IMG/VR virus record: IMGVR_UViG_3300025889_000139
Span: 1-58,279 of that record
DNA from: a virus
Lineage: Duplodnaviria; Caudoviricetes
DNA length: 58,279 nt
Direction: 5' to 3' (one strand)
The notes below the pieces were generated by a model, which saw only the letters and a list, made by a program, of their open reading frames with translations, did not search any database and had not been told where the DNA came from. Shown piece after piece: positions 9,375 through 30,282 of the stretch (the stretch's first letter is position 1; each line of letters opens with the position of its first letter). The translations under genes were made by a program, and so were the position numbers.

Positions 9375-10005
9375 AACCTAATGCTTCTTCTACCATACTA
9401 TGTAAATCTTCTATAGTCTCGTCATTCTCAATAACATGATCAAACTTCTCGCCAATCCATTCACGTTCAGATGGATGGATTTCGGTCAATGACCCCGGTA
9501 TCATCATTGAACTTCCGCCTTCTTGTTTCTGTGCTTTATTCCAAGACTCGGCGGCAACATACCAATCTGGCTCTGGACCACGGCGAACACGGATTGTAGT
9601 CCCGCGCATATTTTTGATCATCTTAAACTCATTGCGGAAACGAACATCTGGAATAACGTAGTTACCAGGATTTTCCAGAATGTACTTTTCCATAGCAGCA
9701 CACCAAATATTCGCACCGAATACATTACGACCAGCCTCGGTGCCCATCCATTGTAGTGCTAATCTGGGCGAAAAATCTTCTACACCAAGACGCTCTGCCC
9801 ACCATTCGTCAACTTCTTCTCGCCATTTACGGCTTTCATCTGTTGACCCAGCAAGCATTTCACGATCCCATTCAAAGATAGTAGAACAAGCATCTTTCAG
9901 TTTATCCGCAAATGATATTTTCTTAAATCCATGCTTCTCTACTAATAGATCAGCAACAGTGTCTTTACCGCTTCCTTTAAAACCGCTTATGCCTATCAAA
10001 GCCAT
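9310..10005 (-). CDS. gp1: Deoxynucleoside monophosphate kinase
   Basis: IGISGFKGSGKDT P-loop, SFADKLK, PRLALQWMGTE, VIPDVRFRNE, HPSE. Confidence 0.93.
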   Translation of the reverse strand: MALIGISGFKGSGKDTVADLLVEKHGFKKISFADKLKDACSTIFEWDREMLAGSTDESRKWREEVDEWWAERLGVEDFSPRLALQWMGTEAGRNVFGANIWCAAMEKYILENPGNYVIPDVRFRNEFKMIKNMRGTTIRVRRGPEPDWYVAAESWNKAQKQEGGSSMMIPGSLTEIHPSEREWIGEKFDHVIENDETIEDLHSMVEEALGFNDQPSDHPDATPDDESQSDS

Positions 10006-10064
10006 AATAATATACCTCTCCTACAGTCAAGTATTTTATTTACATAACGGAAATCTGTGGTTAT

Positions 10065-10093
10065 ATTATACTATAATGAAACGCTGTTGTCAA
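10065..10093 (-). promoter_or_regulatory. Sigma70-type early/middle promoter for dNMP kinase
   Basis: TTGACA-N17-TATAAT on the minus strand. Confidence 0.75.
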
Positions 10094-10129
10094 GAGGATA
10101 ATGATAAATACATAAAAGGAGTTTTTTTC

Positions 10130-10885
10130 ATGGCCGATCTTGCTACTGAACGCCAAAAGGTGAAAGATTATATCTATTATATGCTTGGTGGGGATATCGT
10201 TGACGTTGAGGCAGATGCCGCACACTATGATACTGCTATTGACCGTGCCCTAAAAGTATATCGCCAAAGAGCATCTAACGCATTTGAGGAAAGTTATGGA
10301 TTCCTTGAACTCGTTGATGGACAGAATGAATATACACTTGATGATAATATTATGGAAGTTCGTTCAGTTATTCGTCGTTCTGTAGGTTCAACCAATAGCA
10401 CAAACTCCACACAACTTGAACCATTTGAAGCAGCATTCGTCAATACCTATCTTCTACAGGCTGGGCGTCTTGGTGGATTGGCTACATATGAACTATTCAA
10501 CCAGTATCAAGAACTATCTGCTCGTATGTTTGGTGGATATATGAACTTCACTTGGGAACCAGTTTCCAAGAAACTAACACTTATTCGTAATATCAAAGCA
10601 AATGGTGAAGTCGTTATGCTTTGGCTATATAATACCAAGCCAGATGTGACTCTATTACAAGACCATATGATTAGACCGTGGATTGAAAAGTTTGCTTTGG
10701 GAACTACAAAGTTTATTCTTGGTGAAGCTCGTGGTAAGTTCTCTACAATCGCTGGTCCTGGTGGCGGCACAACTCTAAACGGTGATGCTCTCAAAACAGA
10801 AGGTCAGCAGTTGATTGATGAATGCATGGATAGTATCAATAACTACGAAACTGGAAATGAACCATTATATTGGATTCAAGGTTGA
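10130..10885 (+). CDS. gp13: Neck protein
   Basis: True start MADLATE (GATAAATA promoter plus AAGGAG); LGG..VDVE, RGKFSTIAGPGGGTTLNGDALK.EG, ending WIQG. Confidence 0.88.
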   Translation: MADLATERQKVKDYIYYMLGGDIVDVEADAAHYDTAIDRALKVYRQRASNAFEESYGFLELVDGQNEYTLDDNIMEVRSVIRRSVGSTNSTNSTQLEPFEAAFVNTYLLQAGRLGGLATYELFNQYQELSARMFGGYMNFTWEPVSKKLTLIRNIKANGEVVMLWLYNTKPDVTLLQDHMIRPWIEKFALGTTKFILGEARGKFSTIAGPGGGTTLNGDALKTEGQQLIDECMDSINNYETGNEPLYWIQG

Positions 10886-10891
10886 TAGTCT

Positions 10892-11107
10892 ATGCGTATC
10901 ACAGATGTAATCACCAAGAAGAAAGAAAACAAGGAAGTTGAAAAGGGCGAAGAAAATAGCCCCTTGCAACAAGCCGATTGGGAAGATGCTGATGAACTAA
11001 TCAATGACGAAAATGGCTTCGTCAATCCAAAAGATGTTCCAGATGTTGATAAGTATATCAGGGCACACGATAAAAAAATAAAAAGATTGATGAAAAAAGA
11101 TAAATAA
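10892..11107 (+). CDS. Small hypothetical protein (MRITDVI N-terminus)
   Basis: 71-aa ORF; its stop lies inside the next GATAAATA late promoter. Confidence 0.6.
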   Translation: MRITDVITKKKENKEVEKGEENSPLQQADWEDADELINDENGFVNPKDVPDVDKYIRAHDKKIKRLMKKDK

Positions 11108-11145
11108 AAGTGTAGTTCGCGGTGGTGGAACACCCAACTACTCTA
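11099..11145 (+). promoter_or_regulatory. Late promoter plus conserved bulged hairpin leader (copy 1)
   Basis: GATAAATAAAAGTGTAGTTCGCGGTGGTGGAACACCCAACTACTCTA; gapless match to copy 2 (30203-30249, minus strand) with compensatory pairs. Confidence 0.85.
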
Positions 11146-11168
11146 ACGCTATGAAGGAGCAATCAGCA

Positions 11169-11276
11169 ATGTTATTTATAAAGACATATCTTGCCTACTG
11201 GATAAATCAGGGGTATTCCAAACAAGAAGCAGACATTATCGCACACCAATATCGTGTTATGTTGGGAGTGAAATAA
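11169..11276 (+). CDS. 35-aa leader ORF coupled to the homing endonuclease
   Basis: AAGGAG RBS, MLFIKTYLAYWINQGYSKQEADIIAHQYRVMLGVK*, TAATG overlap with the next ATG. Confidence 0.6.
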   Translation: MLFIKTYLAYWINQGYSKQEADIIAHQYRVMLGVK

Positions 11277-11980
11277 TGACTACTGTTTATAGTATATACA
11301 AAATCACCAATAAAGTCAATAAAAAAGCATACATTGGTTTCACCTCTCGTGAAATATCCCGCAGATTCACTGAACACGCCACACCATCAGGGGTATGTGG
11401 AGTCAGCAAAGCTATTAGAAAGTATGGTAAAGAAAACTTCACAATAGAAATCATATATCAATCATATGACCACCAACACACCATTGATGTAATGGAACCA
11501 TACTTCATCAAGGAATACAACACATATCTTGGTGAAGGATATAATGAAACCCCGGGCGGTGAAAGAAGGTGCGGTGAGGACCACCCTATGTTCGGCAAGA
11601 AACATTCAGCAGAAACTAAAAAAAAGATGTCTATTGCTGCGCTTAATAGAGAACCACATTCCGCAGATAGTAATAAGAGGAAAGGAAAATCAGGCGATGA
11701 TAATGTATCCAAGCGACCTGATGTTAAAAAGAAAATAAGCGAAGCAGTTTCCGGCGAAAGAAACGGTATGTACGGCAAAAAACATACACCCGAAGCAATA
11801 TTGAAGATGAAAGCCGCGCTGACAGGACGGAAACACACAGAAGAAACAAAAAGAAAAATCAAAGAGGCTAATATGAAGAGGGCAAAGCCCCCGAAGAAGC
11901 CTTGCCCTCACTGTTCCAAGATGGTTGATCCGCTAAACTACAAAAAATGGCACGGAGATAACTGCTCTAATAAGTCTTGA
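11276..11980 (+). CDS. GIY-YIG homing endonuclease with NUMOD3 repeats (free-standing, Seg-like)
   Basis: SIYKITN..KAYIG..R..EH, GYNETPGG, NUMOD3 MFGKKHSAETKKKMS repeats, C-terminal CPHC..WHGDNC. Confidence 0.92.
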   Translation: MTTVYSIYKITNKVNKKAYIGFTSREISRRFTEHATPSGVCGVSKAIRKYGKENFTIEIIYQSYDHQHTIDVMEPYFIKEYNTYLGEGYNETPGGERRCGEDHPMFGKKHSAETKKKMSIAALNREPHSADSNKRKGKSGDDNVSKRPDVKKKISEAVSGERNGMYGKKHTPEAILKMKAALTGRKHTEETKRKIKEANMKRAKPPKKPCPHCSKMVDPLNYKKWHGDNCSNKS

Positions 11981-13145
11981 GCAAGATGGTGTGTTCATTC
12001 GTTCTACCAGGAAACTTGACTTCTACGGCCTTGATTTCATCCAAGAACTTACGCAGGGCAACCTTACCAGCCTTATTGAACTCTTTGAGTTTTTCTTCTG
12101 GTTTGCGGATATTTTTACCGACAGAGTTAGCCTCGTCGTATCCAATAATGGTAGTGCCCTTCACGGCAAGTTGCTTCATATTCGGGTCAGCAACAACTTT
12201 GTAAAGTTTCCTAAGTTTCGTATTATAAAGCCACAAGGTTTCAGCACCGATAATATCTTCTGGACGAATGCTAACCAGTTTGAGGTCTTTATCCTCTGCC
12301 TTATACTTCAACTTAGCAACCTGTTTGCCCTTGGTAGGAGCCTTCTTGGAACGGGTCTTACGAGAAACTTTCTTCAAGTTCATATAAGAGTTCATATCGT
12401 CAAGTAGGTTATTGTAGAACTCAAGGATACGCTTGATATCGGTCTTGGACAAGTGGGCATAACCCTCTTTCAAGTCAGGGTCAATCTCACTTGCTTTACC
12501 AGTAAGTTCTTCAATCTCCGCTTTCTTCGGCTCATAATACGCAATAATCTTATTGATATGGGATTGAGCCACATTCTTCTGTTTCATCCACTCAAAGACT
12601 TTCGGCGTGGATGCTTTGGGATTAGCCATGATGGTATCTTCCCATTCATCCATTTCAGCAATAATGTCGGACAACTGTTCAGCCATACGCTCTTGGATGG
12701 ACGGTTTATAAACATTACTGGCTTTCTTTTCTTCTTTTTTCTTCTTGACCACAATGTTCTTGCCGTAGTCAATCATCGCAGCAACTTTATCACGCAACCA
12801 GCCGCTTTCAGTATTCGGCATACCACGAAGCAGCATAGTCGCATTAGCAACTACGGCACCAGAAAGCATAGCATCAGGGTAAGCACGGGCAGACTTGATA
12901 TCAGCAGCAGAATAACCAGCCTCTTTCATCCACGCATAAAGATTTTTCTTTAGATCGCTGGCTTTGTAGAAATAGTTATACCAGTTATATGCGTGGCGTT
13001 TCTCACGCTGGATTTCTTCATCAGTCCAGTTTTCAGCATTGACCCATTCGGGTTCTTCACCCATATATTTGGTATCAAACGTTTTAGCAATACGAGGCTT
13101 TGCTGTCTTTTTACGGGGGGCAGTTACTGATTTTGCTCGTGACAT
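11967..13145 (-). CDS. Conserved hypothetical basic protein of T4-like phages
   Basis: 392 aa, AAGGA RBS, late-type ATAAATA upstream; KYMGEEPEW, AYNWYNY, C-terminal GRTNEHTILLK. Confidence 0.75.
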   Translation of the reverse strand: MSRAKSVTAPRKKTAKPRIAKTFDTKYMGEEPEWVNAENWTDEEIQREKRHAYNWYNYFYKASDLKKNLYAWMKEAGYSAADIKSARAYPDAMLSGAVVANATMLLRGMPNTESGWLRDKVAAMIDYGKNIVVKKKKEEKKASNVYKPSIQERMAEQLSDIIAEMDEWEDTIMANPKASTPKVFEWMKQKNVAQSHINKIIAYYEPKKAEIEELTGKASEIDPDLKEGYAHLSKTDIKRILEFYNNLLDDMNSYMNLKKVSRKTRSKKAPTKGKQVAKLKYKAEDKDLKLVSIRPEDIIGAETLWLYNTKLRKLYKVVADPNMKQLAVKGTTIIGYDEANSVGKNIRKPEEKLKEFNKAGKVALRKFLDEIKAVEVKFPGRTNEHTILLKTY

Positions 13146-13175
13146 TTTAATTCCTTTACTAAACGCTATTTATGT

Positions 13176-13397
13176 TTAGCCTTCCACAACCTCAAGCATG
13201 GTTTTTCCTTCGGCAACCGATTTCAGATTGAGATACACTTCGTGTTCCGAACTGGTCGGGTTTTCAAACACCAGCATCGGTTCGCCGTTGTTCTCCGAAA
13301 GACGCACACCCTTGAACGGGCCGACTTCCATCGTCGCCATCAGCGCGGGTTCGTCAAAGAGTTCTTTGTTCAGCGAAAACATACCAACTTGTTGCAT
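13176..13397 (-). CDS. Early hypothetical protein
   Basis: AGGAG RBS and its own early promoter (13432-13459). Confidence 0.7.
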   Translation of the reverse strand: MQQVGMFSLNKELFDEPALMATMEVGPFKGVRLSENNGEPMLVFENPTSSEHEVYLNLKSVAEGKTMLEVVEG

Positions 13398-13417
13398 TTT
13401 GAATCTCCTGTTTTTTC

Positions 13418-13460
13418 CAACTTACAAAGACAGTATAGCAGATTTTATGGGTTTGTCAAG
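13418..13460 (-). promoter_or_regulatory. Early promoter cassette
   Basis: CTTGACA-N16-(TGC)TATACT followed by GTCTTTGTAAGTTG. Confidence 0.85.
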
Positions 13461-13467
13461 TCTTTTT

Positions 13468-13803
13468 TTACATCGTCCAGTAACGGTCAGTGGAAGGGTC
13501 ACAAGCACCGCCCTTGTCGCCACGACGAATGGTAGCAGTGTTCACACTGCCAGTGTGAGGGTTGATGAAGGTGACTTCAACTTCTTCGTTCATAAACGAG
13601 TAGTACGCTTCTTTTACCAACTCTTTGGCTTCGCCAGCGGGACGCTTAGTGATGGTGGAAATGGCTTCGTCGCCAACGACAACGTAAGCATTGACTTTGC
13701 CGCTCTTGCGGGTCAGTTTACCAATCTCGGTGCGACCACGATAGCCGTTGTCAACAACGATGGTGCCATTGGTCTTGTCGTTCCACTTGAAAAGAATAGC
13801 CAT
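13468..13803 (-). CDS. Early hypothetical protein
   Basis: GGAG RBS, own early promoter; ends CDPSTDRYWTM. Confidence 0.75.
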   Translation of the reverse strand: MAILFKWNDKTNGTIVVDNGYRGRTEIGKLTRKSGKVNAYVVVGDEAISTITKRPAGEAKELVKEAYYSFMNEEVEVTFINPHTGSVNTATIRRGDKGGACDPSTDRYWTM

Positions 13804-13831
13804 TTGGTATCTCCGTAAACACTGTTTCTAT

Positions 13832-13874
13832 CAACTTACAAAGACAGTATAGCACATTATAACCATTTGTCAAG
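13832..13874 (-). promoter_or_regulatory. Early promoter cassette
   Basis: CTTGACA-N16-(TGC)TATACT followed by GTCTTTGTAAGTTG, identical to the 13418 cassette over 23 nt. Confidence 0.85.
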
Positions 13875-14056
13875 TGTTTTTTTCACATTTTCTTCGGTCA
13901 TATCACCAAGGTCTTCGCCATCGTTTAGTATAACCGATTCATGACCCATTTTAGCCAGTTTACGACCAGCAGCATCGCCATCACAAACACAGACAATGTG
14001 CCGATTCGTGGCTCGTAACCACGGACGCAGTTGCTTTGGGTCATTAGACAGGGCGG
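13857..14056 (-). pseudogene. C-terminal remnant of a TOPRIM-like protein, 5' part lost
   Basis: LSNDPKQLRPWL..IVCVCDGDAAGRKLAK..EDLGD (TOPRIM DxD.AG); no credible start or RBS; abuts an inverted insert. Confidence 0.55.
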
Positions 14057-14183
14057 CACTGTACAGCAGAGCATAGGTGGACAATCAGGCGGCGAAGGGT
14101 ATGTATTAGCACACCCTGAAGGTGATATTAAACTAGTGCCAAGGTCCACATTTAGTGCAGCCAACCGTGCAGTACAACGATAA
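14055..14183 (+). pseudogene. Orphan C-terminal gene fragment carried on the insert
   Basis: GTVQQSIGGQSGGEGYVLAHPEGDIKLVPRSTFSAANRAVQR*; no start codon; resembles the GEGYV..IKLV.R..FS.AN end of a conserved T4-like phage protein (recalled, unverified). Confidence 0.5.
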
Positions 14184-14207
14184 ATATCAGTAAGGTGAGG
14201 ATTTATT

Positions 14208-14855
14208 ATGAAAATTTCAGAAATTACACAGCGTAGCCAAGCACAACATCTCGCAGAAGGTGAAATGATAAAGACGGAAGTGGTCAAAATGCCTCCCACT
14301 AAGAATAGTAGCCAAGGCATGGCCGATTGGGCCTATAAGGACGCTCAAGATAAAAAGGTTCCGCTCAAAGGTTCTCTCAAGGGAATACCCTCCGAAGTCT
14401 ATGACATGGGTGATCATCTGCGTGTGTTCGTGAAAGATAATCAAGGGCCTGTGCTGTACTTGGCTTTACACAAATTCTTGGATGGATTCAAAAGCGGAGC
14501 GGTGGCTGTGGAGCCTAGAGGCAGAGGCAAGAATCTAGCAGTCCGTGTGTATCAATCAGCCAGCGACACGTTTGGTCGTCCTATTTACAGTGATACCACA
14601 CAGACCGATGCCAGCAGGATCGGTATCTGGCAAAAGTTGATAGCCACAGCGCCGGACCGGGTGGTAGGATATGATCAGCGGACTCGAGAAGATTTGCCAC
14701 TCACTGCCACTGATCGAGGCCCTGCGGTGCGTGGTAATCAACCAGTGTATACACAAAGGACTGCCAAAGATTTTCCCAAACCTGTGACCGATCAAAATAG
14801 ATCAAGAACTCGGTTGTTGAAGTTGTTGACTTCGCCATTTACAACCGCTTCGTAA
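14208..14855 (+). CDS. Late-expressed putative internal head protein, possibly GNAT-like
   Basis: GATAAATA plus GAGGA RBS; MKISEI N-terminus; VAVEPRGRGKNLAVRVY..SDTTQT...IWQKL resembles GNAT motif A. Confidence 0.55.
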   Translation: MKISEITQRSQAQHLAEGEMIKTEVVKMPPTKNSSQGMADWAYKDAQDKKVPLKGSLKGIPSEVYDMGDHLRVFVKDNQGPVLYLALHKFLDGFKSGAVAVEPRGRGKNLAVRVYQSASDTFGRPIYSDTTQTDASRIGIWQKLIATAPDRVVGYDQRTREDLPLTATDRGPAVRGNQPVYTQRTAKDFPKPVTDQNRSRTRLLKLLTSPFTTAS

Positions 14856-14929
14856 CCAAGAACATATTTGATATGATTACGGGCGCGTTCAAAGAAAACT
14901 CCTGCTTCGTGTTGTGTTGCGTATTTCAT
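14792..14929 (-). pseudogene. Short or truncated early ORF
   Basis: ATGA-coupled to the upstream gene; MKYATQHEAGVFFERARNHIKYVLGYEAVVNGEVNN then runs into the antisense of the insert. Confidence 0.4.
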
Positions 14930-15240
14930 TGGACCATCACCCCGCCTTCACGGAAAAAACCTTTCCACATATTACGTGCATCTTTGATGTCAATAATCTC
15001 GTTCAAGGACACTTCGCCTTCTACCGTGTGGATAACGAGTGCTTCCAACTGCCCACCTTCACCGGGAAAAACAGTAAGATCACTATCATTAGTAGCAATC
15101 TTCTTAACTTCGTCACGGTTAAACATACGGACGTTACGGCCAGCTTCGCACAGCACCATATGATGCTCGGCGATATTACCCAAATCGCTTGTATCAACGA
15201 TTCGGCCAGTATCCATATCAATCAGGTGAAAAACTTCCAT
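14926..15240 (-). CDS. Early hypothetical protein
   Basis: AGGAG RBS; early promoter at 15269-15296. Confidence 0.7.
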   Translation of the reverse strand: MEVFHLIDMDTGRIVDTSDLGNIAEHHMVLCEAGRNVRMFNRDEVKKIATNDSDLTVFPGEGGQLEALVIHTVEGEVSLNEIIDIKDARNMWKGFFREGGVMVQ

Positions 15241-15254
15241 CGGGTATCTCCTAT

Positions 15255-15297
15255 CAACTTACAAATAGAGTATAGCAGATTTTTAGGATTTGTCAAG
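15255..15297 (-). promoter_or_regulatory. Early promoter cassette
   Basis: CTTGACA-N16-(TGC)TATACT then CTATTTGTAAGTTG. Confidence 0.85.
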
Positions 15298-15888
15298 CAC
15301 TTTTATGAAGTTTTCTGTTGTCATCCATATACGGTTTTGTGAGTTCCACGATCCTACCTTGGGCCAAGTGCCAGGAAGTACATGAATAAACTGTATCTCT
15401 GGAAATAACCGATGGAGTTTGTTTATTTGATATATCCAGTATGATGGGTCAACGGGTCGGCGATCTGGTCCATCATAGTTTGGTGTTCCCTTATAGATGT
15501 TGTTATGGCGGTTTCCCATACTATAAATGTCAAAACCCAAAAAGTAAATCTTCTTGGGTTTCTGTAAACAAGCTAGGTATGCAGCGTAGGTTCCTGAACC
15601 CCAGTTCATAGGTTCATCAGCTTTATGTTCTGGTTTATATGGAAGCTCTGGTAGATACTGAACATACGGGTATGCAGCGAAACTTGAGTGCCATCTTGGT
15701 CGTGTATATATGGATATTCCCAAATCAGCAGCTTCCTCAACACATCGTCTATCTACCGCTATAAGGTATGTTGGATGAAAGTCGCGGCAGATGGCATTAC
15801 ATCCAAACGTGATATGTTTTTCTAGTTTGGTTAGGTCAAAACCTTTCCTAGTCTCACCATTTCCAAGTACCACGTATAACTGCTCCAT
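15283..15888 (-). CDS. DUF115/MptE/Maf-like putative glycosyltransferase
   Basis: VLGNGETR, FGCNA, LIAVD, GSGTYAAYLA, IYFLGFD. Confidence 0.6.
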   Translation of the reverse strand: MEQLYVVLGNGETRKGFDLTKLEKHITFGCNAICRDFHPTYLIAVDRRCVEEAADLGISIYTRPRWHSSFAAYPYVQYLPELPYKPEHKADEPMNWGSGTYAAYLACLQKPKKIYFLGFDIYSMGNRHNNIYKGTPNYDGPDRRPVDPSYWIYQINKLHRLFPEIQFIHVLPGTWPKVGSWNSQNRIWMTTENFIKVLDKS

Positions 15889-15924
15889 AAAGTATTTAGA
15901 TAAATACTATAATAGGAGTACAGT

Positions 15925-17397
15925 ATGCCTCGTTTGAGTTTATACCAAGCAAATAGAAATAATGACTACACTTTTTTTGACCGTTTAGTTAGCGAACAGA
16001 TGACTCTGGGCGCTACTGCCATCATGATTCATAAATATCTTGGAACGCCGAAATCCACAGTGGATAGCGATGACTTATCACAGCCAAGTTATAACACACA
16101 AAGCGAACTGAACATCCAAGATTTACTATTATTGGAGAACAGGGACCGTGTGTATGAAGAAGATGTATATGAACTCCGTGGGCATTATACTGTACCAGAT
16201 ATGGATATGTCCAATGAGCAGTTCGGTCTATTCATCAGTAACGAAAACCTAAACTTTGTTTTTCATCTCAACGATATGGTTGAGCGTATGGGCAGAAAGA
16301 TTATGCCTGGTGATGTATTGGAACTCCCACACCTCACGGACTTTTGGGCACTTGACGATAGTGTTCCAGTAGCACTAAAAAGATATTATGTGGTAGAAGA
16401 TGCAAGCCGTGCTGGCGAAGGTTATTCACCAACGTGGTATCCTCACCTATGGCGTGTTCGTGTGAAACCAATGGTGGATAGCCAAGAATACTCACAAATA
16501 TTGGATAAGATTGTTGACGGGACGGGCAATGAAAGCCTACGGGACTTGCTAAGTGTTTATAACCAAGAGTTGGCTAATAATCAAGCAGTAGTTGCCCAAG
16601 CAGAGGAAGAGGTTCCAGCAAGCGGTTATGATACTTCACAACTATATGTTATTCCATCAACTGGCGAGACACCATTTGAGTATGCTGACCCAGAAAGCGA
16701 TACACCAGTTGCAAATGGTTGGACTGATGGTTATCTAACAGGTGACGGTCTTGCTCCAAACGGACACAATGTAACAAGCGGAACAACATTCCCAGATAGT
16801 CCAAGCGATGGTGATTATGCGTTGCGTTTGGATTATCTACCAAACAGATTATTCAGGTACAACGGAACACGATGGGTCAAAGTTGAGAATATGGAAAGAA
16901 CTTCACTGACACCTGGTGACGGTCAGACACAGCGTGATACATTCGTGAATAATACAAACATCACATTTACGGATGATAACCGCCAGATTGACGAGCGTGT
17001 TTCTCTACACGAGGCATTGAGCTTACAGATTGATGCGGTATCAACATCAAGCACAGTATCAGCGAATACTGACCCAACCCCAACAAGACCAGTTTGGTCA
17101 AGCCCAGATGCTGGTGATTTAGGAACATTTAGTGAAGCAGCAGCATATTCTAAAACATTTGTAGCATCGGGCACAGGAACGATTACATATAGCGTTATTA
17201 CTGGAACATTACCTGGTGGTCTTACTCTATCTTCTAATGGAGTATTGAGCGGAACATTTGCCCAAGTATCGGTAAATACAGTATACCAGTTTGCTATTAG
17301 GGCAACAGACGATAATGGAACAGCGGATAGGTCATTCCGTATTACGGTGAATGATTATAATCCGTTTAGTTCTGAGTTTAGTAGCGAGTTTAACTAA
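15925..17397 (+). CDS. gp14: Neck protein (gp14-like) with C-terminal Ig-like extension
   Basis: QDLLLLENRDRVY, FGLFI, MPGDVLELPH; C-terminal TYSVITGTLPGGLTLSSNGVLSG..FAIRATD Ig-like domain. Confidence 0.75.
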   Translation: MPRLSLYQANRNNDYTFFDRLVSEQMTLGATAIMIHKYLGTPKSTVDSDDLSQPSYNTQSELNIQDLLLLENRDRVYEEDVYELRGHYTVPDMDMSNEQFGLFISNENLNFVFHLNDMVERMGRKIMPGDVLELPHLTDFWALDDSVPVALKRYYVVEDASRAGEGYSPTWYPHLWRVRVKPMVDSQEYSQILDKIVDGTGNESLRDLLSVYNQELANNQAVVAQAEEEVPASGYDTSQLYVIPSTGETPFEYADPESDTPVANGWTDGYLTGDGLAPNGHNVTSGTTFPDSPSDGDYALRLDYLPNRLFRYNGTRWVKVENMERTSLTPGDGQTQRDTFVNNTNITFTDDNRQIDERVSLHEALSLQIDAVSTSSTVSANTDPTPTRPVWSSPDAGDLGTFSEAAAYSKTFVASGTGTITYSVITGTLPGGLTLSSNGVLSGTFAQVSVNTVYQFAIRATDDNGTADRSFRITVNDYNPFSSEFSSEFN

Positions 17398-17406
17398 GGA
17401 AAAAAC

Positions 17407-17955
17407 ATGGCGGATACATCAAGAACACAAAGCGATTTATTGACTAATCTATTTCAGGACGGTCAAGCAGATGGAAGCATCACAGCACAAGATATGAGAG
17501 ATTTGATTGTAAGTCTAATCCCAAGCACAGGCTCTGGTCGTTTTACATCAAGTGCTGTTGTCAACATTACTTCTACGGGAGTATTCACAACTCCATCATC
17601 TGGAACAACAGCATTATCAAATAATACTTCCGACATTGATATGCCTCAAAATGGTAGGATTAGATATACAGGTCTAACAGATAGAAACTTTCTACTATCT
17701 GTATCTATTTCTGCGACGGTTGCAGGTAATAACCAAGATTTGCGCTTCCAACTAACTAAGAATGGTACTGGTATTACAGAATCAATAACATCAAGAACGT
17801 GGGGAACAGGAACAGATGTTGGTTCATTGACTATCTTGTCTGGCGTTGTTCTTTCACAGAACGATTATATTGAGATTCAAGCAGCAAACGATACAAGTAC
17901 CAATGATATTACTATTACCAATGGTAGCATAAGCATGCACGGACATCTTACATAA
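17407..17955 (+). CDS. Putative virion fibre/decoration protein (C1q/BclA-like jelly-roll)
   Basis: S/T-rich; FQLTKNG..LSQNDYIEI pattern; AAGGA RBS; lies in the neck cluster. Confidence 0.5.
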   Translation: MADTSRTQSDLLTNLFQDGQADGSITAQDMRDLIVSLIPSTGSGRFTSSAVVNITSTGVFTTPSSGTTALSNNTSDIDMPQNGRIRYTGLTDRNFLLSVSISATVAGNNQDLRFQLTKNGTGITESITSRTWGTGTDVGSLTILSGVVLSQNDYIEIQAANDTSTNDITITNGSISMHGHLT

Positions 17956-17964
17956 GGATATCCA

Positions 17965-19206
17965 ATGCTTATAGAACAAATCATCAAGGAATATAAAGCA
18001 CAAGAGATAATGCTTTACGACAAATACCCACTAAAGGTATATGCCGTTGGGTCTTTGCGTAACTTAGAAAGTCTCGCATCCAATATTGGTGATTTGCGTG
18101 GAACAACTGTTGGTAAACAGATTTGGTTCTGGGATGCTATGAAAGCAGCACACAACGATGTCCAAGAAACTCTAAGACCTTACCAAGATGAGTATGGAAA
18201 CATTGGAACATATGATTTATATGTGTCCAAAGGTGAACCTGATTTACATGGTGCCGAATGGGAAGGTCATATGAACCAAGTACCAGGAACAGATTTACAT
18301 ATTGGTGTATATTCCCCATATAAGCGCCACAATGATCCATATGAAGATGGCACAATGCATTGGAAAGATGTAAACCAACACCTAAATCTACAACGAATGC
18401 TAAAAGTGAATGAAGATACACAAATACTTGACGAAGCAAGAATGGCTCCATTATTTCATTGGACCAAACTTGAGCGTTTCTTTAAGATTATGGACGAGGA
18501 TACACTAAAAGGTCGTTCCCAGATGAGTAAGTATAACATGAAAAAGACGCCGCCAAGTATTTCATTCACACGTGATTATCGCAGACAGTTTGTACCGGGT
18601 CAAGTAGGCACTACTATTGGCTTGATTATTGACCAACAGAAACTAAACCAAAACTACAAAATAGAACCCGCTGTGAATACTGTAAAAGATGTATCTTATG
18701 ATGATTTACGTGACCATGACAAAGAAACCGTAGATAAAGCAAGAGCGGGTGATGAAGATGCTATCAGAATGGCTAAATCCGTAGCATTCAATGGAACATT
18801 TCTTATTGATATTGTTAAAGGTTCTGCTGGAAGAGTAAACCGTTTTGAGAGTGAAGAACGTGTATACGCCGAAGAAATCCCAAATATCAGTAAGTATATT
18901 ACAGGTATTGCTCTGAACACGATGGCTCAAAGAAAAGATGGTGACTTGAGTGTAGGTAAAGAATACTTCCCAGGTTTCCAGTTTATCCAGTTGTTTAATC
19001 CATACAGAGAGCGTGGTTTTGATATGCGTAACGAAATGCTTGCTCAAGCAGAAAAAAACGGTTGGTATTTCTTCTTCGGTGGAAAGAAATATACACCACA
19101 AGAAATAAAATCCAGTATGATTAAATACTATAGTTTCCGCAAGAAAGATTATAGCGGATGGGTAGATATGATTAGGACTTGGGGATATCACCCAAGAATG
19201 GTATAA
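17965..19206 (+). CDS. Two-module putative internal head protein with an ADP-ribosyltransferase-like C-terminal module
   Basis: MLIEQIIKE start, linker VNE..ILDE, then LFHWT..SISFTR..ESEERV (H/S/ExE spacing typical of the ART fold). Confidence 0.5.
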   Translation: MLIEQIIKEYKAQEIMLYDKYPLKVYAVGSLRNLESLASNIGDLRGTTVGKQIWFWDAMKAAHNDVQETLRPYQDEYGNIGTYDLYVSKGEPDLHGAEWEGHMNQVPGTDLHIGVYSPYKRHNDPYEDGTMHWKDVNQHLNLQRMLKVNEDTQILDEARMAPLFHWTKLERFFKIMDEDTLKGRSQMSKYNMKKTPPSISFTRDYRRQFVPGQVGTTIGLIIDQQKLNQNYKIEPAVNTVKDVSYDDLRDHDKETVDKARAGDEDAIRMAKSVAFNGTFLIDIVKGSAGRVNRFESEERVYAEEIPNISKYITGIALNTMAQRKDGDLSVGKEYFPGFQFIQLFNPYRERGFDMRNEMLAQAEKNGWYFFFGGKKYTPQEIKSSMIKYYSFRKKDYSGWVDMIRTWGYHPRMV

Positions 19207-19207
19207 G

Positions 19208-20626
19208 ATGGCGCAACAGTATTTTTATAGTCAACAAATCCGTAGGTTCTTACTACAAATCAGTCGTGTATTCAGTAACTTTCAGGTTGAGTATGGAAAA
19301 GACGATGCGGGTAATCAGGTGTTGAGAACGGTTCCTGTTCGTTATGGTGATGCGAGTAAAGTTGTAAATGCTATCATTAGACAGAACAGTGAGAACGCAA
19401 CAATACCAACTCCTATGATGAGCTTTTATATAACAGCGTTGGATTATAAACGTGATTGGGTACAGGAACCACATCACGTGGACAAGTTAAATGTTCGCCA
19501 GAGAGACTATGACGAAAACACCGGACAACTAACAACATCACAAGGTAATGCTTTTACCATTGAGAGACTTATGCCTGTTCCATACGATATGAAAATCAAC
19601 GTCGATATATGGACCAGTAACACAAGTCAGAAGTTGCAGCTTATGGAACAGATTGCGTGGATTTTTAATCCATCTCTTGAGATACAATCAACAGATAACT
19701 ACTTGGATTGGACTTCCCTCACAAGAATGGAGTTAGTTGGTAACACTTGGACAAATAGAAGCGTCCCAACTGGTACTGATGATAGCATTGATATTATGAC
19801 TTTCAACTTCAATATTCCAATCTGGATTAGTCCACCAGCAAAACAGAAACGCCTTGGTGTTATTAGAAGCATCGTTGCAAGTGTTTACGATGAGAGTGGT
19901 GATTTTGATGACGGTGTTATTGATAGCGGATTGCTCATTGGTAAGCGTGTAAGAACATCTTGGAACAACCATAGTATTTTCCTACTGAACGGTGAGGTAA
20001 CGTTGAAGGACCATACCGCAACATACACTGACCAGAACGATACGCTGGATAGTGGAACACCGACACAAGTCGGTGATAACAATGTGAAATGGCGTGAGCT
20101 ATTGGAGAGCTACGGTGATTTCCAAAATGGTATTTCACAACTACGTATTGACTTGGAAGATGGAACAGAAGTTATCGGCACAGTAAGCTACCATCCAAGT
20201 AATGATTATAAACTACTGTTCAACGCAGACGCTGATACTATCCCAACAAACAGTCTAAATGCCGTTGATAAGATTATTGACCCGTTACAGAGTGGACCTG
20301 GCGCTGGATTACCAACAGCGCAACCAGGTCAAAGATACTTGATTATCCGTGATATCGGTGATAGCAACAACTTTGATGGACCAGATGCATGGAAAGGTGT
20401 CGGGTATGACCAAGACAGTGCTTTGGGTGATTTCGTAGCGAGTGCTAACGATATTATCGAATACGATGGTGATAAGTGGACCGTGGCTTTTGATGCGAGC
20501 GCGGTATCATCAACACAGTATGTAACAAACACCACCACAGGCATCCAATATAAATGGGATGGCACCGAATGGCTATTGAGTTATCAAGGTATGCACACAT
20601 CTGGAAATTGGGCCATCATTATCTAA
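19208..20626 (+). CDS. gp15: Tail sheath stabiliser / tail terminator with C-terminal extension
   Basis: YFYSQQIRRF, VPVRYG, PVPYDMKINVDIWT, QLMEQI..FNP, WISPP. Confidence 0.85.
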   Translation: MAQQYFYSQQIRRFLLQISRVFSNFQVEYGKDDAGNQVLRTVPVRYGDASKVVNAIIRQNSENATIPTPMMSFYITALDYKRDWVQEPHHVDKLNVRQRDYDENTGQLTTSQGNAFTIERLMPVPYDMKINVDIWTSNTSQKLQLMEQIAWIFNPSLEIQSTDNYLDWTSLTRMELVGNTWTNRSVPTGTDDSIDIMTFNFNIPIWISPPAKQKRLGVIRSIVASVYDESGDFDDGVIDSGLLIGKRVRTSWNNHSIFLLNGEVTLKDHTATYTDQNDTLDSGTPTQVGDNNVKWRELLESYGDFQNGISQLRIDLEDGTEVIGTVSYHPSNDYKLLFNADADTIPTNSLNAVDKIIDPLQSGPGAGLPTAQPGQRYLIIRDIGDSNNFDGPDAWKGVGYDQDSALGDFVASANDIIEYDGDKWTVAFDASAVSSTQYVTNTTTGIQYKWDGTEWLLSYQGMHTSGNWAIII

Positions 20627-20641
20627 CACTGTAAATACAGT

Positions 20642-21103
20642 ATGATAAAGAGTGCTGGGGCATTATTCTATTGCTCATCAACAAAACGATACCTATTCTT
20701 ATTACGAGATAATCACCCAAGATATGAAAATACTTGGTGCTTTCCAGGTGGCAAGATGAAGAAAGGTGAGAGTGAGTTTGACGGGGCTTTACGGGAGTTA
20801 CGTGAAGAACTTGGTATCAACGTAGATGCAAAAGGTTCATTCTCAACATTACTCGGTAGGTCTATCCCATATATAAAAACTATCCCCATAGAAAAGTTCA
20901 CCAGTGAAGATGGTAAGTTTGAGTACCACACTTATGTTTTCGTGGTAGAGAATGAGTTTATGCCTATTCTAAATCATGAACATAAAGGATATTGTTGGAC
21001 TAAGCTCCGTGGTTGGCCCAAGCCGTTACATCCTGGCGTATTCAGTACATTGAATGAGAAATCTATTAGGAAAAAACTACTGTCTATTGAACAAGAGTTT
21101 TAA
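20642..21103 (+). CDS. Nudix hydrolase
   Basis: Nudix box GGKMKKGESEFDGALRELREELG. Confidence 0.92.
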   Translation: MIKSAGALFYCSSTKRYLFLLRDNHPRYENTWCFPGGKMKKGESEFDGALRELREELGINVDAKGSFSTLLGRSIPYIKTIPIEKFTSEDGKFEYHTYVFVVENEFMPILNHEHKGYCWTKLRGWPKPLHPGVFSTLNEKSIRKKLLSIEQEF

Positions 21104-21611
21104 ACCTATCCCAACTGATATGATGAAAATTGGTATGCCATCTTAACCTTTCTGGGACTTGCTGGTTACCACTCGCCGATACCAAAACAAAATCTGTATC
21201 ATCATATACATCAACTACAGTTGATATATTCGCTCCTTGTTTATCGGTAAGGTCTTCCATACCAAATATAAACAATGTCTCAAACTTATAGAATGCCGCC
21301 ACGTATATAAGTGATGCTGGTCTGGAAAGCATTGGTCTGTATGGTATGGTGTTCTCGTTACCTTTGTGTTCGTATGTTTTATCATGTACCGTGAAATCCG
21401 CTTGCTCATAAGAGAATGTTGGGTAGGGTAGGCTCATATGCTTTAAAGGTAAGTCAGTTGGACCAGCAAAGCACAATCCAATATACGATGTGTTCTTGTA
21501 TTTGATGTTATTTTTTATCTGGATTGGTGTGCGGATTTTCTTACCATTCTTTATGGTAAGTTCATATATACGCTCGCCTTTATAGGTATCCACATATTGT
21601 TTAGTTAGCAT
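21084..21611 (-). CDS. Hypothetical protein, possibly a degenerate DUF115-like paralogue
   Basis: LIYVAAF..LFIFG..DTDFVLV echoes the C-terminal half of the 15283 and 27555 ORFs. Confidence 0.5.
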   Translation of the reverse strand: MLTKQYVDTYKGERIYELTIKNGKKIRTPIQIKNNIKYKNTSYIGLCFAGPTDLPLKHMSLPYPTFSYEQADFTVHDKTYEHKGNENTIPYRPMLSRPASLIYVAAFYKFETLFIFGMEDLTDKQGANISTVVDVYDDTDFVLVSASGNQQVPERLRWHTNFHHISWDRFKTLVQ

Positions 21612-21618
21612 ATGCTAT

Positions 21619-22716
21619 TTAGAGGCGACCAACAACCACCTCAATAAGTCCTGTTTCGCCTTCAAAGTCTTCCAATGCTTTACCAATGACTTGACCCATT
21701 TGTGGATTTTCTTCGGCACGGGCTGTACCATCACCGTTGGAAACCATCATATCACCTTTACGGACTGTGCCTGTAACTTTACAAGGGGCACGACCTGAAA
21801 GTGCTACAGCAGCAAGAAACTCACCTGTTTGTGTTGAGTTCATCAAGTGGGCTGGGGCTGTTGATACGATACCAGCAATACGCTTATCACCATCAATAGT
21901 TGATACTGTTACTTCATGTTTGCCGCCGAATGAAAGAACTGTTCCGTTTTCATAATCGGCGTCTGCTACATAGTTTTCCGCCAAGTCAGCGTATTGTGCT
22001 TTTGTTGCTACACCGTGGAACTGTGCGGCGTACATATTAGTCCACATATCAGTAGGTGAACCGACATTTTGGATAGTGGATGTTGCTGATGGTAGGATAT
22101 CACCAGACGAATCAATGGTTATGTTATTATTTAAAACAATGTCATCATTAGCGTGATTTATAACAATATTATCGACAAACCCAAGAGAACTACCAGCACC
22201 TATTTTTAATTTATCATTATCACTATTATCTATACCCATGAGATAAGTTATATTAGATGCTTGTATGTAATATCTCATAAATGCATCGCCGGCTGATGAG
22301 GAAATAACATTTGCTGAAAAATACGCATCCGCGCTTGACGATGTTGAATTTTGCGTAGCCGATATCGATATATCAAACCCATCATTTTTAGACGTAGAAA
22401 TACCGTTTAACATAGTAGTATTACCATCAATGATGGTCATTATAGTAGTTCCATCTGCTACAAAAGAAATTGTCCCGTTTGATCCTGTATCTGTTATAGT
22501 AATATTCGTATTGCCTTCAGTAATTGCATTTGCAGAAATACCACCAAGTTCCTGTTGTACGAATGCTGTTGTAGCAATCTGTGTTGTGTTTGTTGTTGTA
22601 GCAGCAGTTGGTGCCGTTGGTGTTCCTGTGAAAGCAGGTGATGCTAATCCAGCAAATGTTTCGCCACCACCTGTTGTTACTGCTTCATCTTGTGCGCTAA
22701 TAATAATCTGACCCAT
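21619..22716 (-). CDS. Tail fibre-type protein with C-terminal chaperone-like domain
   Basis: LASPAFTGTPTAPT..TQIATTAFV fibre motif; C-terminal YADLAENY..GTVL..VALSGR.PCKV.G.V.KGD..IGKALE. Confidence 0.75.
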   Translation of the reverse strand: MGQIIISAQDEAVTTGGGETFAGLASPAFTGTPTAPTAATTTNTTQIATTAFVQQELGGISANAITEGNTNITITDTGSNGTISFVADGTTIMTIIDGNTTMLNGISTSKNDGFDISISATQNSTSSSADAYFSANVISSSAGDAFMRYYIQASNITYLMGIDNSDNDKLKIGAGSSLGFVDNIVINHANDDIVLNNNITIDSSGDILPSATSTIQNVGSPTDMWTNMYAAQFHGVATKAQYADLAENYVADADYENGTVLSFGGKHEVTVSTIDGDKRIAGIVSTAPAHLMNSTQTGEFLAAVALSGRAPCKVTGTVRKGDMMVSNGDGTARAEENPQMGQVIGKALEDFEGETGLIEVVVGRL

Positions 22717-24710: not shown

Positions 24711-24752
24711 CTAAATCTCCACTGTTTCTAATATTTATCCAAAACAGAAAGA

Positions 24753-27539: not shown

Positions 27540-27554
27540 TGCAAAACTCCTGTT

Positions 27555-28256
27555 TTATGTATTTATCTGTTGGAGGAAATGTTTTAGATGGATACTCTTA
27601 TAGTTATGTAAATCCCTCCACTCCAACGGACTATAATCTAAATGTGGATTAACCCTAATGAACTTTCTATCATGAAACTCTTTCATTATATCAGTCATTT
27701 GCATAATCCAGTTGTTATAATGCGTTTCATCAGCGTTGCTTTTCTTATAAAACTCTCTATCAGCAAAGACATTATTCAGTTTGCGTTTCTCTTTTTTATC
27801 ATCAAACTTACCCAATCCCATCAAGTCAAATCCAATCATATAGATATACCTATGCCCCGCCTCGCAGGCCAAAGTGCAGGCCACAGGACCAGAACTATAC
27901 GCATTATTCTTTTTTATCTCTTGTACCTTGGTTTCTTTACCAAACCATTTCACAGGATTTCGTGTATACATTAGATTGTCTTTGGTATAACCTGACTTCT
28001 GAATATGATTAGCAATAGCCATATCAACCGCAATCAATACATCAGGGACACAATCTTCATAAAAAAAGTTACACCCGTAAATGGTTCCCTTGCCTCGTAA
28101 TGTTTCTGGGTCCATTTCTTTTCTAGTTATACCATTACCAAATACAAACGCAGATTCTGCGGCTGGATGCTTCAATGGTTTACCAGAGTTTTCTTTCGCT
28201 AGTCGCTTTAACTCTTTCTGCTCACGCTTCCATAATCGTTTTTGTTCTTTATTCAT
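27555..28256 (-). CDS. DUF115/MptE/Maf-like putative glycosyltransferase (paralogue of 15283)
   Basis: FVFGNGITR, IYGCN, LIAVD, SSGPVA, IYMIGFD. Confidence 0.6.
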   Translation of the reverse strand: MNKEQKRLWKREQKELKRLAKENSGKPLKHPAAESAFVFGNGITRKEMDPETLRGKGTIYGCNFFYEDCVPDVLIAVDMAIANHIQKSGYTKDNLMYTRNPVKWFGKETKVQEIKKNNAYSSGPVACTLACEAGHRYIYMIGFDLMGLGKFDDKKEKRKLNNVFADREFYKKSNADETHYNNWIMQMTDIMKEFHDRKFIRVNPHLDYSPLEWRDLHNYKSIHLKHFLQQINT

Positions 28257-28267
28257 AAGCTTCCCAT

Positions 28268-28302
28268 AAAAAAAATAGTCACAGTATTTACCATGACTAT
28301 TT
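28268..28302 (-). terminator. Terminator hairpin whose loop contains a late promoter
   Basis: AAATAGTCA/TGACTATTT stem followed by a T-run on the minus strand; GGTAAATA in the loop. Confidence 0.6.
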
Positions 28303-28336
28303 CTTTTATTGATTTTGTAATATTAGATTATTGAGT

Positions 28337-28714: not shown

Positions 28715-28825
28715 TTTGTTTTCTCCTTATAATATGCCGTTCTAGGGCTACGGGGATGGTGTTCCCCATAAGTCTATCTCATAGGATAGTTCAGTAGTAT
28801 TTATCATAAAAGAGGATTTTATTGT

Positions 28826-29368: not shown

Positions 29369-29401
29369 GACGTAAACTTCCATAAAAGTTATCGTAAGGT
29401 T

Positions 29402-29430
29402 AGTATAGCATATTTTGATAGTTTGTCAAG
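29402..29430 (-). promoter_or_regulatory. Early promoter
   Basis: CTTGACA-N16-(TGC)TATACT; the -35 overlaps the stop codon of the endonuclease gene. Confidence 0.85.
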
Positions 29431-30184
29431 AGGATTCTTTACAGTTATCACCATGCCAGCGTGGATAAACATTTACAGCAACATCCTTGCCACAATGAAC
29501 GCAATGCTTCGTGGGACGCTTTAGACCAGTTTGTGATTTTGCTCTACGGGCTACAACTTCTGGGTCTTGTTTTCTTCCTTTCATAACAGCGGATAGTTTA
29601 GCCTTTTGTTCTTCACTCATAGGAACTCCTTTGTTATGTGCTGGCTTTCCTTTATTGGCTTGACTTATCTTGTCTCTGGTTTCCTGTTTTACTTCTTTTC
29701 CATATCGTGGGTTATTTTTTCCCATCATTATTTTTGACATATTTTCTCGGTATTCAGGTGTTTTACAATAGTCCTTGTTTTGTCCTTTTAGTGCTTCGCT
29801 AATTTTTTGTTTGTGTTCTTCGCTTTTGGGAACACCGGATAATGCTTCGCTTATCTTTTGGAAACTTTCTTCCGTGGCAAAGATTGCCCCAGCAATATTA
29901 CCATTTAGGTATCTTGAATCATGCTGAACCTGATTTTCTACCAAATACTTTTCTTCATACGCAATAGCATCATCCCTATTATCAAAGACTTTATCAATCT
30001 CCACAATAAAACTATCAGCACCATATTCAGCAATAAGTTGATGAACCCTTGATGATGATGTGAAATAATCCACCCAAAGGTCTTTTTCGGGTTCCATATT
30101 TTTTCTATTGACAGAGTAGCGCACTCCGTAGTATAATGTGTTCGTTGGTTTATGAGTTAGTAAATAAGTATATGCTGTATACAT
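29426..30184 (-). CDS. GIY-YIG-like homing endonuclease with NUMOD3 repeats
   Basis: YTYLL..YYGVR, YFTSS, AIAYEEKYL, YLNGN; KSEEHKQKISEA and MSEEQKAKLSA NUMOD3 motifs; CVHC..WHGDNC. Confidence 0.85.
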   Translation of the reverse strand: MYTAYTYLLTHKPTNTLYYGVRYSVNRKNMEPEKDLWVDYFTSSSRVHQLIAEYGADSFIVEIDKVFDNRDDAIAYEEKYLVENQVQHDSRYLNGNIAGAIFATEESFQKISEALSGVPKSEEHKQKISEALKGQNKDYCKTPEYRENMSKIMMGKNNPRYGKEVKQETRDKISQANKGKPAHNKGVPMSEEQKAKLSAVMKGRKQDPEVVARRAKSQTGLKRPTKHCVHCGKDVAVNVYPRWHGDNCKESS

Positions 30185-30202
30185 TCGTTTTCCTTTCGTA
30201 TA

Positions 30203-30249
30203 TAGAGTAGGTAGAGGTTGCCGCCTCGTGACCTACACTTTTATTTATC
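30203..30249 (-). promoter_or_regulatory. Late promoter plus conserved bulged hairpin leader (copy 2)
   Basis: Minus strand GATAAATAAAAGTGTAGGTCACGAGGCGGCAACCTCTACCTACTCTA. Confidence 0.85.
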
Positions 30250-30282
30250 ATTATCGCACTATCAAATATAAAAAGTCAATAT

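Follow-up and report, generated by a model that had tools for sequence, protein, structure and literature searches.

A covarying two-hairpin cassette ahead of homing endonuclease genes in T4-like aquatic phages, with a conserved fold that fits the strand opposite the gene

Homing endonuclease genes of the T-even phages and Aeh1 (I-TevI, I-TevII, I-TevIII, segB, and mobE) are described as carrying their late promoter in a hairpin that sequesters the ribosome-binding site (RBS), and the late transcripts of I-TevI, segB, mobE, e, and soc start inside the hairpin and lack its 5′ arm (PMC2988022). The same source gives the autorepression of I-TevI, a precedent for a protein that acts on an operator (PMC2988022). 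In environmental T4-like phage DNA, Dassa et al. (2009) described hairpins in 15 of 16 endonuclease 5′ untranslated regions (UTRs) of marine metagenomic “fractured gene” loci, upstream of free-standing GIY-YIG and Vsr-like open reading frames (ORFs), where TATAAATA and two mutually complementary conserved motifs were read as a sense-strand translational hairpin (PMC2677866). The present text concerns a 47-nt element that occurs twice in the IMG/VR virus record IMGVR_UViG_3300025889_000139, of which the whole 58,279 bases (a record 16% complete, hereafter the window) were analyzed. The window is assigned to a T4-like phage by its gp23 major capsid gene and by the ATAAATA core that precedes many of its genes with short leaders. 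The element appears to be the upstream half of a portable cassette of approximately 80 bp that belongs to free-standing homing endonuclease genes of T4-like aquatic phages, and the conserved fold of this cassette fits the strand opposite the gene, which suggests that it probably encodes a small antisense RNA restraining the nuclease.

The antisense RNA CfrI was reportedly described by Millard et al. in 2010. It is approximately 225 nt long and lies opposite a homing endonuclease gene and psbA in cyanophage S-PM2 (PMC2984593). CfrI resembles the cassette in that an antisense RNA is found opposite a free-standing homing endonuclease gene of a T4-like aquatic phage, whereas it is about three times longer than the RNA predicted here and is linked to psbA. 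The closest mechanistic analogue seems to be found among the insertion sequences, where RNA-OUT of IS10 is a cis-antisense small RNA (sRNA) opposite the transposase 5′ UTR. Another such RNA, art200 of IS200, is a small structured cis-antisense sRNA opposite the transposase 5′ UTR and blocks the initiation of translation (PMC4513863); it is this RNA that the analogy fits best. As proposed for the cassette, a selfish element there carries an antisense RNA opposite the leader of its own enzyme together with a structure in the mRNA leader; the differences are that IS200 is another class of element, that art200 involves promoters of the host RNA polymerase and Hfq, and that the two have no sequence relation.

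PeSL elements combine an early promoter with a terminator and flank varied small genes. They are known as portable promoter-plus-stem-loop modules at the gene borders of T4-type phages and are thought to drive modular shuffling (PMC2839356, PMC4122927). The cassette differs in having late-type promoters, two hairpins, and a cargo that is almost always a homing endonuclease, and an early sigma-70 promoter of the PeSL type is not enriched in cassettes (11/84 versus 6/84). The hairpins of Dassa et al. are probably the same or a sister element, as compared by their verbal description, which may bear on priority; in contrast to the cassette, the parts of that paper dealing with the hairpins mention no second hairpin, facing promoter, or strand analysis (PMC2677866). 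Full-text literature searches gave no account of an antisense-folding two-hairpin cassette on endonuclease genes.

The two window copies of the 47-nt element align without gaps (copy 1 on the plus strand, 11099-11145; copy 2 on the minus strand, 30249-30203) and are identical at 36 of 47 positions, as stated in an earlier note on this DNA. They differ at positions 18, 21, 24, 25, 27, 28, 30, 34, 35, 37, and 39, among which the four compensatory pairs listed in that note are indeed present (18:39, 21:37, 24:35, and 25:34), with the remaining three changes in the loop and the bulged C residues at positions 20 and 22 unchanged. Both copies form the same bulged hairpin (−13.9 and −14.3 kcal/mol, z-scores of −2.86 and −2.98), and 2 of 200 shuffles are equally stable. 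A shared 17-mer has three matches in the window at up to three mismatches, versus 0.29 expected, and none of 100 shuffles reaches three.

The earlier note took the 47 nt for the whole element, which turned out too short: they are part of a two-hairpin module of approximately 80 nt that extends into the first four codons of the gene. The 5′ part of the module is composed of ATAAATA, 1-7 nt, GUGUAG-NN-C-R-C, an inner stem of 3-5 bp, a loop, and NN-CUAC, together hairpin P1. The 3′ part comprises UCUA, a helix of 4-8 bp with the Shine-Dalgarno (SD) sequence in its loop (P2), (U)CAGC, five bases, and TATTTAT, which falls within the first codons of the gene. The CAGC columns (GCUG in the antisense orientation) are near-invariant in the alignments. 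In the subfamily to which copy 2 belongs (ATGTCCAGC...; L008, L019, L063, and L084), the start codon precedes CAGC, so that P2 encloses both the SD and the AUG. The window holds approximately 30 ATAAATA sites, and the cassette leader is found only at the two endonuclease genes.

Further members were collected from IMG/VR in two scans. With the first 16 bases of the element as query, the first scan returned at least 117 loci, the hairpin being present in 75 of the 117 listed (72 by pattern; L027, L045, and L080 by eye). The second was independent of the promoter and used the pattern GTGTAG...CTACTCTA only; it also returned at least 117 loci, with 29 cassette members among the matches listed and chance matches to a loose pattern in the remaining loci. 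Both scans pooled (234 loci listed) give at least 80 distinct 100-nt copies of the cassette, and the covariation, folding, and facing-core statistics below refer to a set of 80 distinct copies from the two scans (79 in some tests); because the members were gathered by pattern, divergent ones are missed. A blastn search with 10000-13200 and two leaders of 90-100 nt against 50,697 phage records returned nothing relevant. The earlier note did not recognize the element as a named family, and Rfam 15 gave no match on it in the window at the gathering score and none overlapping the cassettes of three further loci (L033, L008, and L017) at E ≤10. Even below threshold, there is no credible match: the single one in 11040-11300 lies downstream of the copy 1 cassette (11219-11299), while in 30090-30330 the few that overlap copy 2 score 11.6-19.1 bits versus gathering scores of 35.6-80.4 and the others fall on the terminator of the capsid gene.

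Covariation was measured in an antisense-oriented alignment, A2, whose structure was defined from one well-paired row of the same sequences. Among the 80 copies, 94.1% of the cells pair compared with 81.1% in shuffles, a value reached by none of 500 shuffles. Both sides are changed in 13 of the 19 pairs (200 cells), and controls with slid partners pair in 32-51%. P1, which is helix 3 of the alignment, has 98.8% of its cells paired and 7 of 11 pairs changed on both sides. The cassette is real, widespread, and under structural selection, and the proposal of the earlier note that a selected structure travels with mobile nucleases is supported.

The wobble pairs of A2 tell the two strands apart. 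Its cells consist of 1268 Watson-Crick pairs, 155 G:U, and 23 A:C, the last of which correspond to sense-strand G:U pairs. G:U occupies pair 47:85 in 79 of 80 copies; pair 48:84 is AU in 52, GU in 11, UA in nine, and GC in five; pair 50:83 is UA in 30, UG in 30, and CG in five; and pair 95:120 is GC in 53, GU in 17, and AU in 10, with zero A:C at any of these four pairs. Folding energies separate the hairpins in the same manner. P1 has an equal mean stability on the sense and antisense strands (−11.05 versus −11.04 kcal/mol), and P2 has a mean of −2.7 kcal/mol on the sense strand versus −6.5 to −6.9 on the antisense strand, which is the more stable in 76 of 80 copies. Against dinucleotide shuffles of each strand, the z-score of P2 is −0.33 sense and −2.51 antisense, that of the whole module is −0.79 sense and −2.37 antisense, and the antisense value lies below the sense value in 75 of 79 copies for P2 and for the whole module alike. 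The wobble pattern and the shuffle-controlled energies together place the selected fold, at least that of P2, opposite to the endonuclease mRNA.

The second line of evidence comes from the facing core. TATTTAT, which is ATAAATA on the antisense strand, is perfectly conserved in 56 of 79 copies and deviates at one base in a further 19. Its spacer from CAGC is 5 nt in 57 of 75, and each of the three possible frames with respect to the start codon is represented (54, 13, and 7 copies). For the 36 ORFs whose start codon immediately follows CAGC, codon 2 has T as its third base in 35 despite six different residues (background 33%); all 35 Ile codons at position 3 are ATT (background 42%); and codon 4 is TAT in 33 versus TAC in two (background 67%). 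This bias in codons 2-4 indicates that selection acts on the DNA or RNA and not on the protein. The antisense consensus reads ATAAATA-N5-GCUGAUGCUCCUUU..AGCRUUAG-A-GUAGUUG-GGAAU..AUUCC-G-C-G-AACUAC-ACUUUUAUUUAU, in which a promoter core is followed by a predicted start at the G of the sixth base, a pair of adjoining hairpins, and a U-rich stretch. The sense form that is common, ATAAATA-AAAGT-GUAG, shares this geometry, so each RNA would begin directly with a hairpin; the starts are placed here by what we take to be the behavior of T4 late promoters. Of the 29 members from the promoter-independent scan, 25 retain sense ATAAATA at a variable distance of 1-7 nt before GTGTAG, and its retention independent of the antisense tail suggests that both promoters are likely real.

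A reading confined to the sense leader is unlikely but credible. It would make P1 a 5′-terminal stem-loop that stabilizes the late mRNA or binds a protein, with P2 presenting or partly masking the SD and the antisense RNA absent or irrelevant. The 25 of 29 members just cited were found without requiring ATAAATA, and they speak for it; with the common 3-nt spacer, moreover, the first G of GUAG is the sixth base after the promoter, which would put P1 at the very 5′ end if late mRNA starts at the sixth base, as the geometry of T4 late promoters suggests. The equal stability of P1 on the two strands and the enclosure of SD and AUG by the sense P2 in copy 2 and its subfamily also fit this reading. 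Sense P2, on the other hand, is no better than shuffled sequence, four helix positions that form G:U in the antisense RNA would be A:C mismatches in the sense RNA, and the conservation of TATTTAT in three frames at a fixed spacing from CAGC would go unexplained. The suggestion in the earlier note of a hairpin at the 5′ end of the late mRNA therefore survives in part: P1 may sit there, whereas the selected fold of P2 belongs to the opposite strand.

With moderate confidence, we read the cassette from its sequence as a cis-antisense RNA control of homing endonuclease genes, in which an RNA of approximately 70 nt would start at the facing late promoter, contain P2′ and P1′, and end in a U-tract. 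Two putative late-promoter cores ATAAATA would face each other approximately 75 bp apart and bracket the module. The sense core would drive the endonuclease mRNA, with its 5′ end at, or close to, the first base of P1 (the G of GUAG), and the facing core, in codons 2-4, would drive the antisense RNA of approximately 70 nt from GCUG. This RNA would fold into P2′, with an anti-SD in its loop, and P1′, which would make it stable at both ends, and would terminate in the ACUUUUAUUUAU run that overlaps the sense promoter. It is predicted to be complementary to the whole leader, including the SD, from the base before the start codon in copy 1 or across the start codon in copy 2 as far as the sense promoter. 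Pairing of leader and antisense RNA, possibly first through the complementary loops, would block ribosome binding, the repression would keep in check a nuclease that is a danger to the genome encoding it, and interference between the converging promoters may contribute. The SD of the mRNA would stay open because the antisense G:U positions of P2 are A-C mismatches in the mRNA.

On the antisense strand, each window copy is predicted to form two neighboring hairpins followed by a U-rich tail (copy 1, 11099-11168, −15.4 kcal/mol; copy 2, 30172-30249, −20.7 kcal/mol, z −2.91). A scan for terminator-like structures calls P1′ of copy 2 on the antisense strand (30215-30234, plus strand, tail ACACTTTTAT). 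Copy 2 also has a sigma-70 consensus within its endonuclease ORF directed toward the cassette, a 12/12 site that stands alone in the family and might substitute for the imperfect facing late promoter of this copy. An antisense sigma-70 promoter was considered as a family trait and rejected, since sites of at least 10/12 occur in 11/84 on the antisense strand versus 6/84 on the sense strand and are not enriched.

Several points weigh against the antisense reading. The 80 copies are interrelated, so that counts and alignment cells are not independent events, and the inner P2 columns of A2 are partly misaligned, with 19-26 unpaired cells per pair. The copy 1 antisense fold has a z-score of −1.42, which is unconvincing taken alone, and copy 1 is not called by the terminator-like scan; members carrying TATAAATAG-GTGTAG have an antisense tail poorer in U. 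ATAAATA is short, and with approximately 30 sites in the window a single one is weak evidence; the facing core of copy 2 departs from the family consensus, being GTAAATA at a 7-nt spacer. With P1 as stable on one strand as on the other and the sense promoter conserved, a sense role of P1 is possible. Over 10900-30500, the contigs of four metatranscriptome runs span several genes and the capsid gene as far as 30311-30332; they reach neither leader and give no verdict either way.

The T-even hairpin is the closest described control, and two of its defining features are absent from the cassette. Both have a TATAAATA-type late promoter and RNA structure directly upstream of a homing endonuclease ORF, and both would serve the same likely purpose of limiting the expression of a selfish nuclease. 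As described, the T-even promoter lies inside one stable sense hairpin that hides the RBS, whereas that of the cassette is outside two hairpins, and the cassette has a weak sense hairpin at the SD (z −0.33, SD mostly in the loop), a fold on the opposite strand, and a second, facing core. A temporal mask of the T4 type, in which AUAAAUA of an early or middle read-through RNA would pair with UAUUUAU past the start codon and block translation while late RNA would lack the 5′ arm, is a further rival. This mechanism is established for T-even endonuclease genes (PMC2988022), and a 7-nt inverted repeat, ATAAATA...TATTTAT, borders the cassette. An 82-nt sense RNA of copy 1 is predicted to form the long-range helix, yet this fold is not above shuffles (z −1.40, 24/200), and the helix consists of just seven A-U pairs. 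No covariation was seen in the 7-bp A-U repeat across the cassette leader, and promoter variants (CTAAATA in L150, L162, and L202; ATAACTA in L124) occur without a matching downstream change. With the promoter outside both conserved hairpins rather than inside an RBS-masking one and the antisense wobble pattern left unexplained, we consider such a mask very improbable.

The cargo shows how widely the cassette travels. Sixty-five distinct downstream ORFs of at least 40 residues were tabulated, and 25 of them have a nuclease domain in Pfam (10 GIY-YIG or SegE_GIY-YIG, eight HNH, and seven HNH_3), while the others comprise nine with NUMOD3 only, one DUF7487, and 30 without a match. The 40 ORFs lacking a nuclease domain include 25 that match endonuclease-annotated PHROGs, eight that match phrog_15526-type families only, and seven that match nothing. 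Judged by these matches, the gene directly behind the cassette seems almost always to encode a homing endonuclease; in three further copies the next ORF is only 16-28 residues long, which suggests decayed genes. Within the window, the two endonucleases are divergent (27% identical) and have a common C-terminal C..C...WHGDNC tail, as the earlier note reported. The restriction of the element to the GIY-YIG/NUMOD3 class did not hold, as HNH (PF01844) and HNH_3 (PF13392) genes bear the same cassette. Many of these HNH proteins start with MTIY like the GIY-YIG ones, which indicates that the first four codons belong to the cassette and not to the nuclease fold. Two functions that the note had offered become unlikely on the same evidence and on the structure: a shared protein operator, as in the autorepression of I-TevI, because the cassette heads nucleases of different families, and a guide scaffold, because the variable part is internally paired and not free.

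Cassettes occur at many insertion sites and before several nuclease families. Their upstream neighbors include RIIB, exonuclease, major head protein (twice), terminase, head closure, SbcC-like, NUDIX, PAAR, and baseplate genes. In L020 and L071, a cassette-bearing HNH endonuclease gene lies directly 3′ of the major head protein gene, like the GIY-YIG gene of copy 2, so this site is occupied by different nuclease families. Copy 2 follows gp23 and its terminator (30290-30311) directly. The nearest upstream ORF, defined crudely from stop to stop, is divergent in 22 of 40 loci and co-oriented in 18; most of the 22 divergent neighbors show by eye their own ATAAATA or TTGAC...TATAAT-like promoter before their start, and in both window copies the upstream gene is co-oriented with the endonuclease. 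The idea that the facing promoter serves the neighboring gene was rejected on this near-even orientation and on the neighbors' own promoters, and the cassette looks self-contained.

Portability of this kind would also suit a module that acts as DNA or as an insulator, either by swapping heads through recombination, as PeSL does, or with P1′ and the U-tract as a terminator that stops antisense transcription leaving the gene; a DNA hairpin with G-T pairs on one strand could then mimic the wobble pattern. The same head, through the MTIY codons, is found on unrelated nuclease families at many sites, P1′ and its tail are terminator-like on the antisense strand, and PeSL cassettes are known in T4-type phages (PMC2839356, PMC4122927). 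Homology for recombination, however, needs no base-paired covarying helices, and a plain terminator needs neither P2′ nor a promoter core at a fixed distance, so we regard this explanation as quite improbable. Seven other loci (L041, L060, L096, L002, L050, L079, and L094) have the ATAAATAAAAGTGTAG head followed by a different hairpin, with a conserved AATCTTGCTTA motif just before the SD of the downstream genes, and may form a second class of structured late leader.

The features of the two window copies are collected in Table 1. The earlier note placed the element in front of both endonucleases; in copy 1, as a correction, the start codon of the cassette (11169) opens a 35-codon ORF and the GIY-YIG gene starts only at 11276, while in copy 2 the cassette start codon is that of the endonuclease. 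The 35-codon ORF has no Pfam or PHROG match, and its origin as the remnant of another endonuclease was rejected, since none of the retrieved loci contains anything similar. Around its start codon, the first 25 nt match the leader of an HNH_3 gene (L105) exactly.

Table 1. Positions of the cassette features and associated genes in the window; RNA ends and promoter assignments are predictions.
Feature	Position	Strand	Basis or remark
Copy 1 sense late-promoter core ATAAATA	11100..11106	+	Sequence; its complement is part of the U-rich tail of the antisense fold
Copy 1 hairpin P1/P1′ (GTAGTT-C-G-C-GGTG, loop, CACC-C-AACTAC)	11112..11141	both	Folds, covariation
Copy 1 hairpin P2/P2′ (CTAACGCT...AGCAATCAG)	11143..11166	both	Antisense fold, strand-asymmetric stability
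Copy 1 SD AAGGAG	11154-11159	+	In the sense P2 loop; anti-SD in the antisense loop
Copy 1 CAGC (antisense GCUG), predicted first bases of the antisense RNA, start of P2′	11164..11167	+	Alignments
Copy 1 facing late-promoter core ATAAATA (TATTTAT on +)	11173..11179	-	Sequence
Copy 1 predicted antisense RNA, ~70 nt (P2′, P1′, then ACUUUUAUUUAUC)	11099..11168	-	Predicted ends
Copy 1 35-codon ORF (MLFIKTYLAYW...), stop overlapping the GIY-YIG start (TAATG)	11169..11276	+	
Copy 1 GIY-YIG + NUMOD3 gene	11276..11980	+	PF01541 2.6e-09, PF07460 2.9e-24, phrog_314 3.2e-35
Copy 2 sense late-promoter core ATAAATA	30242..30248	-	Sequence
Copy 2 hairpin P1/P1′	30207..30236	both	Folds
Copy 2 P2/P2′ region, helix TATAC.../...GTATA enclosing the SD and start codon 30184-30182	30174..30206	both	
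Copy 2 CAGC, within the ORF	30177-30174	-	Sequence
Copy 2 imperfect facing promoter GTAAATA, 7-nt spacer to GCTG	30160..30166	+	Sequence
Copy 2 sigma-70 consensus TTGACA-18-TATAAT, 12/12, within the endonuclease ORF, antisense towards the cassette	30108..30137	+	
Copy 2 predicted antisense RNA	30172..30249 (30144-30249 if from sigma-70)	+	Predicted ends
Copy 2 SegE-type GIY-YIG + NUMOD3 gene	29426..30184	-	PF19835 2.6e-08, PF07460 1.4e-16
gp23 major capsid gene	30352-31545	-	PF07068, 3.5e-98

Some further features were observed around the two genes. A strong terminator-like hairpin of 14 pairs (eight G-C) is present on the minus strand at 11878-11909, inside the 3′ end of the copy 1 endonuclease ORF and just past a convergent gene (11967-13145, minus strand) that overlaps this ORF by 14 nt. 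Directly downstream of the copy 2 endonuclease, 28826-29383 (minus strand) encodes a 185-residue protein with approximately seven tandem repeats of DG.K.W.LNG.(L/R)HRTDGPA, for which Pfam gave weak matches (DUF6745) and nothing stronger. A freshwater-2 RNA (RF02980) was found at 28712-28790 (minus strand) with 57.6 bits versus a gathering score of 49.9, just 3′ of an ATAAATA core at 28804 (minus strand) and ahead of a 125-residue ORF (28337-28714, minus strand); one metatranscriptome contig covers 28512-28778, where it ends in adapter sequence. Contigs of four runs, each from a different study, all stop at 30311-30332, by the strong capsid-gene terminator at 30290-30311, as would fit transcripts that terminate at this site.

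Among the selfish elements of large lytic phages, homing endonucleases are the foremost, and how they are restrained is known only from a few T-even examples. The cassette is absent from Rfam and is read here on the strand opposite the gene. It could flag free-standing endonuclease genes and their borders in the genomes of uncultured phages, and it points to a design rule in which, an antisense G:U being an A-C mismatch in the mRNA, one stretch of DNA would encode both a stable regulator and an open ribosome site. As a speculative extension to which we give little credence, the antisense RNA of each cassette may act as a governor with a shared frame and a private address, set by the hypervariable inner stem-loop of P1 and by P2 in the manner of plasmid copy-control RNAs, so that coexisting nucleases would have no cross-talk. 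Through its conserved parts, the RNA could also target in trans the endonuclease mRNAs of another phage in the same cell, which would make it a weapon or a shield in homing contests between phages. In five long records with 1-3 copies each, the inner stem-loops differ within a record, except that two copies in one record are close; the copies are few. If the antisense control itself is true, a covarying RNA cassette common to unrelated nuclease families would represent a general solution to the problem of self-harm.

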